A DNA stretch of 64,000 bases from Spirochaetia bacterium. GTDB taxonomy: Bacteria; Spirochaetota; Spirochaetia; DSM-2461. The notes under the pieces are model-generated. The model saw only the letters and a program-made list of their open reading frames with translations, made no database searches and was not told the origin of the DNA. This document shows, one piece after another, positions 5,697 through 63,471 of the stretch (position 1 is the stretch's first letter; each line of letters begins with the position of its first letter). The stretch is from positions 736,001-800,000 of the forward strand of contig CAXXIA010000001.1 of NCBI GenBank assembly GCA_963666985.2, read 5' to 3'. Position numbers and translations under genes: made by a program.

Positions 5697-5754
5697 TCCG
5701 ATATTGGACGGTTAAATAAGGCGTAATCCTTTAAAAAAATTAAGAGACTAAAAA

Positions 5755-5819
5755 GTCCATATAATCCCGCGATACGGGCGGAAGTTTCTACGGATCGCCG
5801 TAAACGATCCACTATGGGC
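5755..5819 (+). ncRNA. Purine (guanine-sensing) riboswitch aptamer
   Basis: GTCCATA-TAAT-cccgc-GATACGG-gcgga-AGTTTCTAC-ggatcg-CCGTAAA-cgatcc-AC-TATGGGC: P1/P2/P3, kissing-loop GG/CC and C at the specificity position; directly upstream of purL. Confidence 0.95.
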
Positions 5820-5878
5820 GAACGGCCGCAACCTGCGTGTCTGGTGCGGGTGTTCCCCATTTATAATTCGGGGGAATG

Positions 5879-45477: not shown

Positions 45478-46011
45478 ATGAGTAAGATTTTCGATCTCGA
45501 TACAGCCATTAGAAAAATCCCTGATTATCCTTCCGAAGGATTTCTTTTTTACGACATCACAAGCATTCTTACGAATCCGGATGCCTTTGTGTACTGCATC
45601 GACCGCATGGTCGAAATTTATAAAGATTCTCCCATTACCGCTGTTGCGGGTATCGAATCCCGCGGATTTATTTTTGCCGCACCTTTGGCCGCCAGATTGG
45701 GAATCCCTCTGATTCTTGTGAGAAAGGCCGGGAAACTTCCCGGAGAAACCTACCATGAGGATTATGAACTTGAGTACGGCCATGCCGCCGTTGAAATCCA
45801 TAAGTCGGATGTGCCGAAGGGCGGAAATGTTCTGCTCATAGACGATCTTATCGCCACAGGCGGAACTCTGCAGGCCGCCAAGAAGATTCTTGAAGAAGGC
45901 GGCGCCATGGTGAAAAAAGTTTTTGGCGTAATCGGCCTGCCTTTCCTGGAATATGAAAAGAAATTACAGGGAGTCGAAGTCACAACACTCATTAATTACG
46001 ATAGTGAGTAG
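45478..46011 (+). CDS. apt: Adenine phosphoribosyltransferase
   Basis: IESRGF, VRKAGKLPG, YELEYG, IDDLIATGGT; SD AGGAG before ATG 45478. Confidence 0.96.
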   Translation: MSKIFDLDTAIRKIPDYPSEGFLFYDITSILTNPDAFVYCIDRMVEIYKDSPITAVAGIESRGFIFAAPLAARLGIPLILVRKAGKLPGETYHEDYELEYGHAAVEIHKSDVPKGGNVLLIDDLIATGGTLQAAKKILEEGGAMVKKVFGVIGLPFLEYEKKLQGVEVTTLINYDSE

Positions 46012-46027
46012 AGAATCCCAGCGGAGC

Positions 46028-46057
46028 TTGACGCAAGCTTAAGGGCGAGGATATAGT
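46028..46057 (+). promoter_or_regulatory. Sigma70 promoter of the tRNA pair
   Basis: TTGACG-N18-TATAGT just upstream of tRNA-Gln. Confidence 0.6.
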
Positions 46058-46074
46058 ACGTTTCGGATTTACAG

Positions 46075-46146
46075 TTCCCGGTAGTGTAATTGGTAACACT
46101 GCAGATTCTGGTTCTGCCTTTGGGGGTTCGAGTCCTCCCCGGGAAG
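46075..46146 (+). tRNA. tRNA-Gln (anticodon CTG), CCA not encoded
   Basis: Acceptor TTCCCGG/CCGGGAA, anticodon arm GCAGA-TTCTGGT-TCTGC, T loop GGTTCGAGTCC. Confidence 0.95.
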
Positions 46147-46195
46147 CTTACAGCACGTATTTACATGCGTGCTGTATTATTTGGATCGAAAGATC

Positions 46196-46267
46196 GGTCC
46201 CTTCGTCTAACGGTTAGGACAGGAGATTCTCATTCTTCAAATAGGGGTTCGATTCCCCTAGGGACTA
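46196..46267 (+). tRNA. tRNA-Glu (anticodon CTC), CCA not encoded
   Basis: Acceptor GGTCCCT/AGGGACT, anticodon arm GGAGA-TTCTCAT-TCTTC, T arm AGGGG-TTCGATT-CCCCT. Confidence 0.95.
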
Positions 46268-46270
46268 AAA

Positions 46271-46296
46271 TCGACCCGAAAGGGTCGGTTTTTTTT
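46271..46296 (+). terminator. Terminator after tRNA-Glu (duplicated at 46565-46590)
   Basis: TCGACCC-GAAA-GGGTCGG followed by T8. Confidence 0.85.
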
Positions 46297-46424
46297 ATGG
46301 AAACAGAAATAGAAAGCGGCTTTCGTTTTCGTTTAATGAATCTTAGGGCCGCCGGTTCAGTCGGCTCGGCATCCGTTTCGAGCCGACCTCCAAGGATTCG
46401 GATACGCTCCACCTTTCGATTTTT

Positions 46425-46590
46425 AAGGGAAATCGAACCCCGAAGGTGACGCCGACCGAAAGGGAGGATCAGCAAGCAGGAAGCTTGCGGAAGTCACCGG
46501 AGGCGGCTTTTTCAAGCCGGCAGGACGCCGGCGCGGGAAAAGTCGATTCCCCTAGGGACTAAAATCGACCCGAAAGGGTCGGTTTTTTTT
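46425..46590 (+). repeat. tRNA-linked structured element ending in a perfect 48-bp copy of the tRNA-Glu 3' end plus terminator
   Basis: 46543-46590 is identical to 46249-46296; inverted T-arm copy at 46425-46441; internal CAGGAnG-loop hairpins. Confidence 0.88.
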
Positions 46591-46651
46591 GTCTTTTTTC
46601 GACAAAAAGATTCAAATCGACCAAGACTTTGCAAACTCGGTTCAGGAAATG

Positions 46652-46690
46652 AATGCATAAATATTGACCATTTTTGCATATTTATACATT
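46652..46690 (+). promoter_or_regulatory. Tandem ARG boxes (ArgR operator) overlapping the carAB promoter
   Basis: AATGCATAAATATTGACC and TTTGCATATTTATACATT, two 18-mers separated by 3 bp; TTGACC-N17-CATTCT promoter overlaps them. Confidence 0.78.
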
Positions 46691-46698
46691 CTACTGAC

Positions 46699-47853
46699 AT
46701 GATTCCCAATTCCTATTTGATACTCGACGACGGGAGCGTTTGGCCGGGAAAGTCTTTTGGAGCAACACCTCCAGCTGCCGACAGCCTTGCGAATGCCGAT
46801 GTTTCGTTTGACGGAGAGGTTATATTCAATACGGGTATGACCGGCTATCACGAAATTTTGACCGATCCATCTTATACCGGACAGATCGTCTTGATGACCT
46901 ATCCTCATATTGGAAACTACGGCGATGACGATTCATGGTCTGAAATCGGCCCCGAATCGGGCCGAGAGGGACTTCCCGGGATAAAGGCCGGAGGTTTGGT
47001 CGTCCGAAGCGTTTATGACGGCCGGGTTCCGGCGGGACGGATCAAACTGAACGAATTCCTGAAAAAAAACGGTGTTTGCGGAATCAGTGAAGTCGATACC
47101 AGAGGATTAACGCTTAAGCTTCGCTCGGAAGGCAGCCGCAACGGAATCATCGTCGGCGCAGGACCGAACGGCGATCTTTCGGAAGAAGAGAAAAAAGCGG
47201 CACTTCTGTATCTGCAATCTCTTCCGTCCATGGCGGGGGCGGACCTTACGGGCAAGGTGGGAACGGCCGAGGTGAGTGCAATCAATCCGGAAGGGAAAAT
47301 CCATGTTGCCCTTTTGGACTGCGGATTGAAGATGAACATTATCAGGGAATTGGTTTCCAGGAATGCGCGGGTAACGGTCCTCCCTTCAAAAACGACTCTC
47401 GAAGATATTCAAACGTTGAAGCCGGACGCACTCTTATTATCAAACGGGCCGGGAGACCCCGAACCGCTCGAATCGCAGGCCTCGCTTGCCGCCGGATTAC
47501 TGGGAAAAATTCCGCTCTGGGGAATCTGTCTGGGGCACCAGATCCTTTCCAGAGCCATAGGCGGAAAAACCTATAAAATGAGTTTCGGTCATCATGGTTT
47601 GAATCATCCGGTAAGGGATGAAAAAACGGGACGCGTTTTCGTAACAAGCCAGAATCACGGTTTCGCCGTTGACGAAGCCTCCCTGCCGGATGGGTTTACG
47701 GTAAGATTTCGGAATGCCAACGACGGAAGCGTGGAAGGAATCGAAAATACCGACCTTAAGCTCATCTGCGTACAGCATCATCCCGAGGCTTCTCCCGGAC
47801 CTGACGATTCGTCATGGATTTTCGATCTGTTTCTGGAAACCTTGGAGGATTGA
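46699..47853 (+). CDS. carA: Carbamoyl-phosphate synthase small subunit
   Basis: [52 protein letters not shown]. Confidence 0.97.
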
Positions 47854-59562: not shown

Positions 59563-59912
59563 AGCATCCCTCGATGTGAAAAATGTATAAACGGTTTTGT
59601 AATCTTAATTTGACAAGCCTAAGAAAAGTCGGTTGAAGTATGCTTCGGCATCCGCCGCTAAGCTTGTTTCATGAGAAAGTACCACATCAGCAAATATATG
59701 TCATCCATATTAACTTTTAATGTGATAAATGCGCGAAACACAATAAAACATCCGGCATCGACGGGACCGAATGGCTTGGGGGAGGTAGGTGTCAGCACCG
59801 GTGATAAATTTCCTGAAAACACCGGAATAAGATTTCCGGTTTTGAGCCAATAAAAACGGGCGAGTATCCCTAAGATGGAGTAACCATACACCCATCGAAA
59901 AGGACACTGCCC

Positions 59913-61166
59913 GTGAAGCTCCAGGAGAAACGCATGCACCAGGCTCAAGTGCTGGCCAAGGAAGGGTACAAGCAGTACCGAATCGCCGAAATACTCGGCG
60001 TTACCGACCGAACGGTTCGAAATTACCTCAGCGGACACAGTCCCAAAATGAGCCCCAGGAAGAAACGGAAGAGCAAGCTCGACCACTTCAAATCCCATAT
60101 TCGCAGTGTACTTGAGGAGGAACCGCTCTTCAATTGCGAGGTGCTTTATAAGAATCTTTGCGCCATGGGTTACACCGGAGGAATCACCATCCTCCGTGAT
60201 TTCGCCAAAGAGACCCGAGATGAGATTCAGAGAGAAGTAGTTCGCCGCTTCGAAACCCAGGCCGGCTACCAGGCACAGATGGACTGGAAGATATTGCCGA
60301 AGGAACACTGGCGAGGCGTCTACGCCTTCGTCATGGTCCTCGGCTACAGCCGGACTCCCTATGTGAGATTCACCACCGATATGACCAGCGGCACACTGCT
60401 GGCCTGCCACCAGAAAGCCTTTGAGTATTTTGGCGGTGTTCCTCAGACTGTATTGTACGACAACATGAAAACAGCATGGGTCCACGACGGAGAAGAGTGG
60501 AAGACCAACTCCCGGTTACTGGAGTTCGCTTCCTCCTACGGTTTCTCTCCAAGACGATGCGCCGTCAGGCGTCCCCAGACCAAAGGAAAAGTAGAGAGGT
60601 TCATCGACTACCTTTCGGGTAACTTCCTTTCTCAGGCACGGCGTAGTGGCCTGAAGACGATCGAAGAACTCAATGACGCCATTCTGCCCTGGCTGACTGA
60701 AGTTCAGCAGAAAGAGCTCCGGGACTACCAGGAAAGTCGTGCCCAGCGATATGAGGTGGAGAAATCCTTCCTGCAACCGGCACCGCCAGAGGGAGCTTTT
60801 GACTACCGTGACAGCATTCAGCTCATTGTCAGTCGAGAAGGCTCAGTCACCTACAAGACTAACAAGTACAGCGTGCCGCCTGTATTGGTTGGTAAGAAGC
60901 TGACGCTGAAAATCGATGCGCTTTCCATGCAGGGGGAAATCCTCAATGGGAAGGTTTCCATACGGCTATTCAATCTCCTTCCAGCTGGCTCCCGGCAGAA
61001 GGATATCCGCAATGAAGATCGGGAAGCACTCTTTACCCTGTGGGAGAAGCAGCGTAAGAAGTCGGCGAAAAAACCAGTCCGGAAGCAACAAGATGAGCAG
61101 ACCATCGTCGATATCAGAAATCCTGCCTACTATGAGCGCTTTGTCGCTGTGGGAGTCTCGGTATGA
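59913..61166 (+). CDS. istA: IS21 transposase IstA
   Basis: N-terminal HTH, DDE motifs QMDW, YDNMK, KGKVER; C-terminal Mu-like YSVP. Confidence 0.95.
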   Translation: MKLQEKRMHQAQVLAKEGYKQYRIAEILGVTDRTVRNYLSGHSPKMSPRKKRKSKLDHFKSHIRSVLEEEPLFNCEVLYKNLCAMGYTGGITILRDFAKETRDEIQREVVRRFETQAGYQAQMDWKILPKEHWRGVYAFVMVLGYSRTPYVRFTTDMTSGTLLACHQKAFEYFGGVPQTVLYDNMKTAWVHDGEEWKTNSRLLEFASSYGFSPRRCAVRRPQTKGKVERFIDYLSGNFLSQARRSGLKTIEELNDAILPWLTEVQQKELRDYQESRAQRYEVEKSFLQPAPPEGAFDYRDSIQLIVSREGSVTYKTNKYSVPPVLVGKKLTLKIDALSMQGEILNGKVSIRLFNLLPAGSRQKDIRNEDREALFTLWEKQRKKSAKKPVRKQQDEQTIVDIRNPAYYERFVAVGVSV

Positions 61167-61927
61167 ATATCAAACTTGAGACCGTCACCGAGAGAATGAA
61201 TTCGCTGGGTATGAGTTTCATGTCCGCAGGACTGGAATCCTTCCTGGCAGAACCCCGCCGGCAGGAACAGACGGTACTGGATATCGTTGCCGACTTGATG
61301 GAACTTGAATACATCCCCCGTAAAGAACGGAGCGCCAAGAGCCGCTTGAAGCTTTCAGGAATGCCGGCAGTGAAAAGGCTGGAAGACTTCGACAGGGGGT
61401 GGCTCAAAGGTGGTATCACCAACCGCCAGTTTGACGAGCTCTCCTCTCTGGCCTTCATCGAGCGAAAGGAGAACGTCATTCTCATGGGTCCCAGCGGCCT
61501 GGGAAAATCTCATCTGATGCTGGCCCTGGGGCACAAGGCCTGCATGGAGGGATTCACCACCTACCATACCACCTGCATCGACCTCATTGAGAACCTGGTT
61601 CTTGCCCGAGAGAACAACCGGCTCAAGCGTCGGCTGGTATGGCTCCGAAAACCGCACCTGCTTCTCATCGATGAAGTCGGTTACGAGAAGCTGACACCCG
61701 AACAGGCTAATCTTTTCTTCCAGGTTGTGAATGCCCGGTATGAACAGGGGAGTATGATCATTACGACGAACAAGCCATTTGGCAGATGGGCGGAGATAAT
61801 GAGTGATGAGGCTGTTGCCAGTGCAACCCTGGACCGTCTGCTTCACCATGCTCATATCCTGAGTCTTCAAGGAGACTCGTACCGAATGAAGGATCGGTTG
61901 AAAGCGGGAGTCGTTGACTTCCTTTGA
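61163..61927 (+). CDS. istB: IS21 helper AAA+ ATPase IstB
   Basis: GPSGLGKS, LLLIDEVGY, ITTN, LDRLLHH, GDSYR. Confidence 0.96.
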   Translation: MNIKLETVTERMNSLGMSFMSAGLESFLAEPRRQEQTVLDIVADLMELEYIPRKERSAKSRLKLSGMPAVKRLEDFDRGWLKGGITNRQFDELSSLAFIERKENVILMGPSGLGKSHLMLALGHKACMEGFTTYHTTCIDLIENLVLARENNRLKRRLVWLRKPHLLLIDEVGYEKLTPEQANLFFQVVNARYEQGSMIITTNKPFGRWAEIMSDEAVASATLDRLLHHAHILSLQGDSYRMKDRLKAGVVDFL

Positions 61928-61986
61928 CGCCCAAAACCGGAAAAACTAAATCGGTGAAATCCGGAAATGTTTCGTCGGTGTTGACA

Positions 61987-62118
61987 GTAGGGGGGAATCC
62001 CATTCAAACCGCGACTTCCTGTCTTGTTTTTTTCGGGCCGTCTTCGCTCACTTCCGGCCACATCCTGTGGCCTCTTCCTCGCTATTGCTCGGCGTTCGCT
62101 CCGCTTCGATTCCCCCTT
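61987..62118 (-). repeat. Second copy of the tRNA/tmRNA-linked structured element (3' end split by IS21; remainder at about 59777-59789)
   Basis: Minus strand AAGGGGGAATCGAA..ACGCCGA-GCAATAGC-GAGGA..GGCCAC-AGGAT-GTGGCC-GGAAGT..GAC-AGGAA-GTC-GCGG..GATTCCCC, the same motif order as 46425-46552. Confidence 0.78.
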
Positions 62119-62125
62119 GAATCAA

Positions 62126-62166
62126 TAAAAAAGCCCGACACCCCCTGACGGGATATCGGGCTTTTT
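62126..62166 (-). terminator. Terminator downstream of the tmRNA-like 3' end
   Basis: AAAAAGCCCGA ... TCGGGCTTTTT inverted repeat with A/T tails on both sides. Confidence 0.75.
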
Positions 62167-62187
62167 GGAGGTGGGGGGAATCGAACC
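62166..62187 (-). other. att site: isolated 3' end of tmRNA (or tRNA-Ala)
   Basis: Minus strand GGTTCGATTCCCCCCACCTCCA = T loop, T stem, acceptor 3' strand CACCTCC (U70) and discriminator A; no 5' half adjacent; composition shifts right after it. Confidence 0.8.
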
Positions 62188-62418: not shown

Positions 62419-63471
62419 TTATTGATTTGCAATGCGTTGTATGTTTCTCGCTATAACATATGCTAATCTGGGTGGAACAGCGTTTCCAATCATTCGAGCA
62501 ATCTTATCTAGTACGTCCGAATAGAATACATAGTTGGAATCAAATGTTTGAAGAGTTGCACCCTCACGAATTGAAATAGCTCGGTCCTGTTCGGGATGCC
62601 CAAATCGTCCATTTGATAAACTTCTAAACTTTGTAGTAATTGTCGGCGAGGGCCTGTCCCAATACATCCTTCCGTAGACATCTGTATGTCCAGTATGGAA
62701 TCTGTAACAGTCCAATTGGAGTTCAGCATCAGTTTGCCATGAAATACGATTTCCACCATCATGAGGGGTTTTTTTTAGCCGCTGAAGATTTCTTTTAGAT
62801 AAAGACGCAGAAGTATGCTGCTTGGGTGAGTAATCGCAGTGCCCAGCAGTAATAGGAGGAAACAAATGATAATCACCTATAGCATCTCGAACCGTTTTGG
62901 AGGAAAAAAATTCTTTAAAACTCAATTCAAAATCATTAACAAGTCGAGTTGCTAACAATATATAGCGAAGACGTGATTGTGGTACGCCAATTTCTTTTAC
63001 ATTGAAGTTTCCATCTCGATAGATATACCCTTTCACCTCTAACATTTTCTTGAAACGACCAATTGGACTTTCAGGATTCTTTTCAAAGCCTGGAACATTT
63101 TCTATAAAAACAAAACCTGGGTTGGCATATGCAACATGCTCCAGAAAGTCGTCCAATAACAAACGAGTAGAAGAAGATTTCTCTTTGCTGGTTTGAATTT
63201 TAGAATAATACTGACACGGACTACAACCAACATAAATCAATGAGTCATCATTTCTTTTTAATCTAAGCGAATTAACTACTAGATCAGGTGTAAGATTCGT
63301 AATATCTTCATTAATAAATAGTGTTTTATTATTTATTTCATATGTCTGTTGGCATTCAGAATCAACATCAATACCGGCCAATACGTTGATGCCTGCTTGT
63401 TTAAATCCAGCAGTAACACCGCCAGCACCTGAGAAAAAATCAATAGCTTTTAAGGGGGTATTATGGATCAC
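62419..63471 (-). CDS. DNA (cytosine-5)-methyltransferase
   Basis: Motif I DFFSGAGG, IV SPCQ, VI IENV, VIII VPQSRLR, IX RAISIREGATLQTF, X IGNAVPP. Confidence 0.96.
   Translation of the reverse strand: MIHNTPLKAIDFFSGAGGVTAGFKQAGINVLAGIDVDSECQQTYEINNKTLFINEDITNLTPDLVVNSLRLKRNDDSLIYVGCSPCQYYSKIQTSKEKSSSTRLLLDDFLEHVAYANPGFVFIENVPGFEKNPESPIGRFKKMLEVKGYIYRDGNFNVKEIGVPQSRLRYILLATRLVNDFELSFKEFFSSKTVRDAIGDYHLFPPITAGHCDYSPKQHTSASLSKRNLQRLKKTPHDGGNRISWQTDAELQLDCYRFHTGHTDVYGRMYWDRPSPTITTKFRSLSNGRFGHPEQDRAISIREGATLQTFDSNYVFYSDVLDKIARMIGNAVPPRLAYVIARNIQRIANQ

Follow-up and report, generated by a model that had tools for sequence, protein, structure and literature searches.

A gene-less repeat unit, made of a folded core of roughly 120 nt set between two copies of the 3′ end of the neighbouring tRNA, one inverted and one direct, sits behind about a third of the tRNA genes of this spirochete genome, most of its tRNAs being without one. 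The unit represents a real family that is widespread in Spirochaetia, and it is probably a non-autonomous DNA element that spreads between tRNA genes and likely takes both of its flanks as copies from the target.

Two units in the window

The window (the whole stretch of 64,000 nucleotides analysed) contains two units, and all motifs which an earlier note had listed for them were recovered at the positions given there. The first unit lies on the plus strand behind a pair of tRNA genes, tRNA-Gln(CTG) (46075-46147, with one sigma70-like site upstream at 46028-46057) and tRNA-Glu(CTC) (46196-46267), the latter being its host gene. Here, an exact 48-bp direct repeat is found, of which copy 1 (46249-46296) comprises the T-loop to the end of tRNA-Glu and the intrinsic terminator (46267-46292), and copy 2 (46543-46590) the same tRNA end and terminator again. 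Since this repeat spans the T-loop through the terminator U-tract, the length of the whole unit is 294 bp (46249-46542). The earlier description of this element as running into a second host 3′ end was therefore correct but too modest, as the duplication is exact over 48 bp and takes in the whole terminator. Between the repeat copies lie a spacer without defined strand (46297-46424) with one extra hairpin (about 46360-46387), in which a possible decayed inverted core reaches a weak and non-significant 1.7 bits; a left arm (46425-46441), which is an inverted copy of the tRNA-Glu T-arm matching at 15 of 17 nt and continuing past the T-loop onto the 5′ strand of the T-stem; and the core (46442-46542), as folded in RNA folding, left arm and core both being on the plus strand. 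The core features a stem (46445-46450/46493-46498), a tandem-G.A hairpin (46452-46467), hairpin 1 (46472-46488) and hairpin 2 (46516-46532), and a carA-like gene starts at 46699, after the second repeat copy. The RNA fold of this copy has a z-score of -4.5 and that of the second unit of -2.6, with 0 of 200 shuffles as good in either case.

The second unit is associated with tmRNA. A stretch of 22 nt at 62166-62187 (minus strand) had been taken for the 3′ end of a tmRNA-like gene, but no gene is present there: the tmRNA gene of the source genome (G000) is located outside the window, at G000:C1:837254-837627 (ARAGORN), beside an ORF which, judged by eye, resembles a tyrosine integrase. This 22-nt tmRNA 3′-end copy thus represents the attachment site at the far end of a 39-kb island in the tmRNA gene, and this island has pushed the intrinsic terminator (62128-62166, minus strand) and the unit away from that gene. 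The unit itself (61987-62118, minus strand) consists of a left arm (62118-62105), the core and the start of a direct tmRNA-end copy; in its reported outer stem, which is not Watson-Crick throughout, a tandem G.A mismatch is present. An IS21 element (59790-61986, plus strand; Pfam rve and IstB), with istA at 59913-61166 and istB at 61163-61927, is inserted in the direct tmRNA-end copy. It is flanked by a 5-bp target duplication (61991-61987 and 59789-59785), and the rest of the split copy continues on the minus strand below 59785, beyond IS21. As cautioned in the earlier note, both units sit behind a terminator (those at 46267-46292 and 62128-62166), and no promoter-like site was seen between terminator and unit at either of them. 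As for the 39-kb island, a C5 DNA methylase gene is found at one of its ends (window 62419-63471, minus strand), and its start (L019) features integrase, umuDC-like, SRAP-like and adenine-methylase-like ORFs, named by eye.

A family of units in Spirochaetia

Copies beyond the two in the window are numerous. An iterated profile search yielded 26 unit copies in the source genome, and a covariance model built from 14 copies gave 28 matches there. When mapped against tRNA genes, as the earlier note had proposed, these 28 matches, all in sense orientation, fall at 17 of the 49 tRNA/tmRNA genes predicted by ARAGORN or at their displaced ends, with one orphan, and an exact 11-nt host tail adjoins 26 of the 28 profile matches. 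Tandem copies number 1 to 6 per locus in this genome, with five 187-bp tandem units and a variant at tRNA-Gly(CCC) and another unit 12.5 kb away, and 10 matches were found in a single array of genome G001. Matches were obtained in 28 of 41 related genomes, the source genome included (21 of 24 within the family), and in at least 14 of 101 genomes across the phylum, 33 candidates having been scored per genome. One carrier, Breznakiella homolactica (L082), is cultured and non-pathogenic. Sense orientation was observed for 150 of the 151 matches near a tRNA, and units occupy at least 26 tRNA isotypes in addition to tmRNA. A strict pattern searched over GTDB gave 64 loci, 57 of which are scored by the model, the other 7 being discarded as chance matches to which the model gave no score. 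Most of these 57 loci (52) are titled Spirochaetota, and the 5 titled otherwise, which include Deltaproteobacteria (2), Desulfobacteraceae and Omnitrophota, may reflect misbinning. In none of these counts of units are kin independent. Viral contigs gave 0 matches in two scans with strict patterns, and plasmids no real match to the unit. No Rfam family reached the gathering score for the unit in the window or at 9 other loci, with only sub-threshold matches in region 46000-46800.

The compensatory stem changes which had been noted between the two window copies hold for the family as a whole. In an alignment of 14 sequences that was not fitted to the model, 79% of stem cells pair, and the covariation score was reached by 0 of 500 shuffles; in 120 distinct model-fitted sequences, 88% of stem cells pair, fitted alignments leaning toward structure.

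Arms probably copied from the local tRNA

The relation between units and their hosts was analysed in 64 distinct tRNA-unit pairs representing 18 isotypes, duplicate records having been dropped here and in the later counts on arms and cores. Read as its reverse complement, the left arm matches its own tRNA over a mean perfect run of 11.4 nt, compared to 5.5 nt for other isotypes (highest null mean 6.7 in 5000 draws). Because the search pattern fixed the first 9 nt at many loci, positions 10-17 were compared separately with isotypes sharing those 9 nt, giving 4.3 vs 2.1 matches, with the own tRNA higher in 51 of 60 cases. The direct 3′-end copy starts right after the TTC of the T-loop. It was found in 55 of the 64 units, with a median length of 19 nt (range 8-221), and 9 units are without a match; the four letters preceding it are GGGC or AGGC in 45/55 and the tRNA-like GTTC in 1/55, a result partly fixed by the pattern.

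Further indications on the source of the left arm come from a set of 97 units, in 42 of which the downstream copy differs from the tRNA. At the differing positions, the left arm follows the tRNA 71 times and the copy 36 times (23 vs 9 units, 10 ties, p 0.02), a preference to which decay of the downstream copy may have contributed. In 7 of the 97 units (null mean 1.0), the arm enters the 5′ T-stem by 4 nt or more, a segment absent from the downstream copy; the tRNA-Glu unit of the window is one of these, and five of the seven, which have the same stem sequence, may be kin. A T-run is present between tRNA and unit in 68/97 units, and at several loci the tRNA end, the terminator and the left arm form one long hairpin. 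The earlier suggestion that the inverted and direct T-arm copies pair to close the unit stands as far as the closing stem is concerned, but the arm sequences also point to a fold-back copy of the upstream gene.

Signs of movement

Cores were compared among 93 genome-by-isotype units from 56 genomes and 26 isotypes. Within a single genome, identities of up to 81-87% are seen between cores of different tRNAs. A core has its nearest neighbour at another tRNA of the same genome in 11 of 53 cases (2.0 expected), and at the same tRNA of another genome in 11 of 53 (4.1 expected), mean core identities being 61-64%, so that cores both switch hosts and are inherited. At different tRNAs, most cores share about 64% identity, and moves are thus rare or old.

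A search for empty sites in close strains, also proposed earlier, yielded one candidate. Three runs of sample S2 contain a strain about 99% identical in the tRNA-Glu flanks, and in the S2 contig the 11 tRNA-Glu letters before the repeat join the repeat and then the downstream flank, the unit interior being uncovered. This strain is thus likely to lack the 294-bp tRNA-Glu unit; the empty allele is called only likely because 11 letters fall short of the 31-letter bridging rule and depth is 3-7, and in this one sample gain and loss of the unit are indistinguishable. Runs X1 and X2, which may be the source sample, carry the filled allele.

Cores were also encountered in unusual settings. At a tRNA-Met gene (L055 1318-1449), a second core downstream of a normal unit is flipped in place between its arms. 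Template switching between short inverted repeats has been described as homogenising the arms and inverting the spacer (PMC8604942). In genome G005, the same core is found without T-arm ends inside a terminal-inverted-repeat element, at 11 of 11 loci examined (L116-L125, L044). This miniature element of roughly 290 bp is present in about 150 copies (307 matches to its terminal motif), some of which carry the unit core, and L049 in genome G009 is another of its loci. Extra sequence is inserted in the hairpin-1 loop at four loci (L027, L041, L129, L130).

No mobilising enzyme is evident from the surroundings of the units. The ORFs within 700 nt at 105 loci cluster by synteny, as IS1182-type copies or as the element only, and no cargo ORF or integrase of the kind that marks integron cassettes and islands occurs within the unit at these loci. 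Matches to the Y1 (RAYT) transposase domain PF01797 that goes with REP sequences number 0 in the source genome (93% complete), and the only GIY-YIG match there is a single frame of 618 aa, presumably UvrC. The target preference of IS91-like elements prompted the idea of an IS91-like partner, and one truncated IS91-like zinc-domain gene lies in the tRNA-Met island. This candidate was rejected, as neither core nor tRNA was found at 20 IS91-like loci of relatives; units and IS91-like elements do co-occur (13/14 vs 14/26 genomes, p 0.015), an association confounded by kinship and mobile-DNA load.

Comparison with known repeats

To our knowledge, the tRNA-linked repeats (TLRs) of E. coli have been unexplained since 1978. 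They comprise 22 copies at ten loci, with 18-19 bp identical to the end of the upstream RNA, and no known function or origin is given for them in PMC8144298. The spirochete unit likewise lies downstream of a tRNA in sense orientation, with a 3′-end copy, tandem copies and an inverted arm. In common with the unit, the TLRs at tyrT/tyrV (rttR, RtT RNA), serX and lysQ are found behind tRNAs, often between two terminators, with a direct 3′-end copy of 18-19 nt from the T-loop, an inverted arm of 8-10 nt and tandem copies, and the two share a short motif before the last hairpin. Among the five E. coli loci compared, inverted arms measure 10 nt at tyrV, 8 nt at serX and 9 nt at lysQ, and none is present at lysT/W/Y/Z; pheV has no repeat within 200 nt. 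The spirochete unit differs by its core with two CA(G/C)GA loops and a tandem-G.A three-way domain, by its occurrence at 26 or more isotypes and tmRNA, by arms of up to 19 nt and by the likely empty allele. The unit's own model gives at most 10.6 bits on the five E. coli loci, and the unit has no Rfam match to RtT. On anatomy and definition, the unit therefore works like a TLR, without belonging to the RtT sequence family.

Three E. coli TLRs located behind 5S rRNA (RrA, RrB and RrF) are transcribed, processed at the repeated end and bind CsrA, RrB doing so through GGA with a KD of about 100 nM (PMC8144298). They resemble the unit in lying between two terminators, with a 3′-end repeat, a start resembling an inverted T-loop and a hairpin with a CAGGAC loop at the corresponding position, and the repeat at rrfB has a hairpin like hairpin 2 of the spirochete unit. 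Nevertheless, these E. coli RNAs are conserved in position, whereas the spirochete units are variable and often without the second GGA. MITEs and REP/REPIN sequences are gene-less, palindromic and multi-copy as well, but the inverted ends of the unit are copies of the target that change with the host tRNA, rather than the fixed terminal inverted repeats with short target duplication of a MITE. Islands that integrate at tRNA genes similarly keep the gene intact by duplicating its 3′ end; unlike them, the unit has neither integrase nor cargo, its junction follows TTC, and it has an extra inverted arm.

The novelty suggested in the earlier note must be lowered because the layout is that of the E. 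coli TLRs. No description of the unit in spirochetes was found in the literature searched, and Egan and Landy 1978, Bosl and Kersten 1991 and Rudd 1999 may cover the arm or mobility. As a term, tRNA-linked repeat was found in PMC8144298 alone, and the TLR alignments of that paper and the position of the CsrA-like RNA of Leptospira biflexa in PMC4863578 may bear on novelty. The spirochete family adds several observations to those on the E. coli copies, namely arms tailored to 26 isotypes, cores that switch hosts, a core that lies flipped, an allele that is likely empty and DNA-like pairing, which together turn the question of what TLRs are into a testable one on mobility.

Pairing in the stems

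G.T and A.C pairs, scored alike, were used to compare the stems of the unit with those of known RNA structures. In 58 terminators next to units, 52 G.T and 3 A.C are found in 790 pairs, against 9 G.T and 17 A.C in the 1494 pairs of 192 element hairpins (Fisher p 2e-8, kin not being independent); tRNA stems have 80 G-U in 1030 pairs. The whole model counts 53 G.T, 57 A.C and 224 G.A in 3566 cells. Judging by the counts in the element hairpins, the stems are thus without a signature of RNA selection. The tandem G.A on the sense strand and the strict orientation show that one strand matters, and the sense strand is favoured by RNA energies in 28/40 cases and by DNA energies in 19/40. Low G-U might come from arm copying at the DNA level even with a product that acts as RNA, and single-stranded DNA and RNA motifs are described as hard to separate computationally (PMC5737381).

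Origin of the units and alternative explanations

Of the two possibilities raised in the earlier note, the small non-autonomous element tied to T-arms is the one that gained support, from the many copies, the tailored arms, the arrays, the likely empty allele and the cores common to different tRNAs. A plausible course of events, pieced together from the arms and junctions, is as follows. While DNA is being replicated or repaired, a nascent strand extended beyond the tRNA end and terminator would fold back and copy the 3′ strand of the tRNA up to the T-loop, which would create the tailored left arm. This strand may then be joined to a core from another site, or copy it, and would re-enter the original template just after the T-loop TTC, where the junction is indeed observed, so that tRNA end and terminator would be duplicated and the gene kept intact. 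Subsequently, the direct repeats would let the unit multiply in tandem or be lost cleanly, and the inverted arms could be homogenised and would now and then allow the core to flip; these outcomes are those seen at present-day loci. A single-strand-DNA (HUH-type) transposase acting in trans would be our guess for the enzyme, and any read-through RNA, with its one good CsrA site, may be a by-product. One may go further and suppose, though we would lean slightly against the statement in its full breadth, that TLRs are non-autonomous single-strand-DNA elements, widespread, still active and able to retarget to any tRNA gene, with both ends built on the target by T-arm fold-back and T-loop re-entry and with a core that also occurs in an unrelated miniature transposon. 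Should the target indeed serve as the template of the ends, the element would be able to enter essential RNA genes without depending on a fixed attachment site, and the filled and likely empty tRNA-Glu alleles would offer a direct way to test the mobility of TLRs.

The other possibility of the earlier note, a CsrA sponge tethered to the tRNA, is weakened and now appears unlikely as the main role. In this scenario, a read-through RNA processed at the tRNA-like 3′ end would titrate CsrA and the unit would be kept for that purpose. Indeed, the hairpin-1 loop holds GGA in 108/120 units, variants keep A(N)GGA, and hairpin 1 fits the published CsrA consensus (PMC8668096). A csrA gene is present in the source genome and in 35/41 genomes, RrB of E. 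coli, which lies between two terminators and shares a hairpin-2-like motif, binds CsrA (PMC8144298), and a CsrA-like RNA has been predicted in Leptospira biflexa (PMC4863578). In a sponge of the CsrB/RsmZ type, however, GGA would be expected in every hairpin loop, whereas the hairpin-2 loop of the unit is GGA in 64, ACGA in 48 and other in 8 of the 120; both loops are GGA in only 4/24 distinct copies of the source genome, and the two window copies are atypical in this. With 1-2 loop GGAs, no promoter of its own seen and no G-U bias, the unit differs from the CsrB and RsmZ sRNAs, with which it has GGA hairpin loops in common, and the RsmZ model (RF00166) gives it 18 bits, below the cut-off of 44. 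Moreover, csrA of the source genome adjoins fliW, the arrangement in which PMC8668096 expects a protein antagonist, and unit presence does not track csrA (25/35 genomes with the gene vs 3/6 without, p 0.36). In E. coli, too, the other 19 repeats, those in tRNA operons, score below 0.01 as CsrA binders (PMC8144298). Hairpins with GGA behind tRNAs can therefore be mis-called as CsrA sponges. Even less probable is a vertically kept RNA trailer, similar to RtT, which would aid processing or stability of the tRNA precursor and owe its repeats to ordinary slippage. The strict sense orientation, the transcription of RrA, RrB and RrF with processing at the repeated end (PMC8144298) and the units common to the same tRNA across genomes (11/53, 4.1 expected) agree with it, but the T-run between tRNA and unit in 68/97, the many tRNAs without a unit, the likely empty allele and the occurrence of the core in a dispersed repeat away from tRNAs do not.

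Two further alternatives concern DNA. The unit could be an attC-like or phage-CTX-like folded single-strand site used by tyrosine integrases that target tRNA genes, units being gene-less cassettes, an idea to which we give as little credence as to the trailer. It draws on the folded arms, which rebuild a duplex T-loop and T-stem in the window copies, on the integrase-bearing islands beside units at tmRNA, tRNA-Val and tRNA-Met, and on the DNA-like pairing pattern. Yet the island repeat starts 5′ of the T-loop whereas the right junction of the unit follows TTC (in part fixed by the pattern), cargo ORFs and matches in the two viral scans are lacking, and a fixed circle would be unable to retarget to other isotypes. 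Least probable of all is that the core acts as a primosome-assembly-like single-strand signal, helping replication to restart at tRNA genes prone to R-loops, or a mobile strand to acquire its second strand. The tmRNA copy can be aligned to a segment of ColE1 (L193 1325-1370) that lies immediately downstream of the origin and that we take to hold the ssiA site, with two tandem-G.A helices in common, and this segment ranks first of 218 windows for 17/60 units. The ssiA site is placed by the ColE1 origin in PMC3167613, the consulted portion of which gives no sequence. However, the alignment score of 29.7 lies within shuffled maxima (mean 27.1, top 34.3), and covariance model and profile are both without a match to the segment. 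Neither is there a bias in replication direction, tRNA rows with a unit being 12 head-on vs 8 co-directional (n=20) and those without 14 vs 15. The reading of the unit as a DNA element retargeted between tRNA genes thus keeps our preference.

Other features near the units and in the window

The one orphan among the loci, L011 4903-5010 (G000:C2:2750303), is the 3′ half of a unit inside an island. Its end resembles that of tRNA-Pro, no gene for which is anywhere near, and it is located 4.7 kb behind tRNA-Met, in a block that also contains a truncated IS91-like gene. Another repeat module, shorter and GA-rich, occurs behind tRNA-Gly(CCC), Gly(TCC), Leu(CAA) and Leu(TAA) (L004 12230-12680 and 640-960, minus strand; L018; L014; L005). 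At the Gly loci, the part of the tRNA that is repeated is confined to roughly its last 10 nt and no terminator is present; at non-Gly loci, the module is nested inside units. The two parts of the tRNA-Gly repeat array are separated by an 11-kb block (L004 1100-12200) in which no integrase was seen and which, by eye, contains sugar ABC transporter-like genes, an AraC-like regulator and an IS1182-like element. Near-identical IS1182-like transposase copies or their ends are located at terminators behind several tRNAs (L003, L004, L009, L010, L014). In genome G033 (L126, L127), tRNA-Ala genes located between the 16S and 23S genes of rRNA operons are followed by units, which are not preceded by a terminator. 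Finally, a purine riboswitch (Rfam RF00167, 65 bits) is present in the window at 5737-5834 (plus strand), where it precedes an ORF of 1337 aa at 5876.
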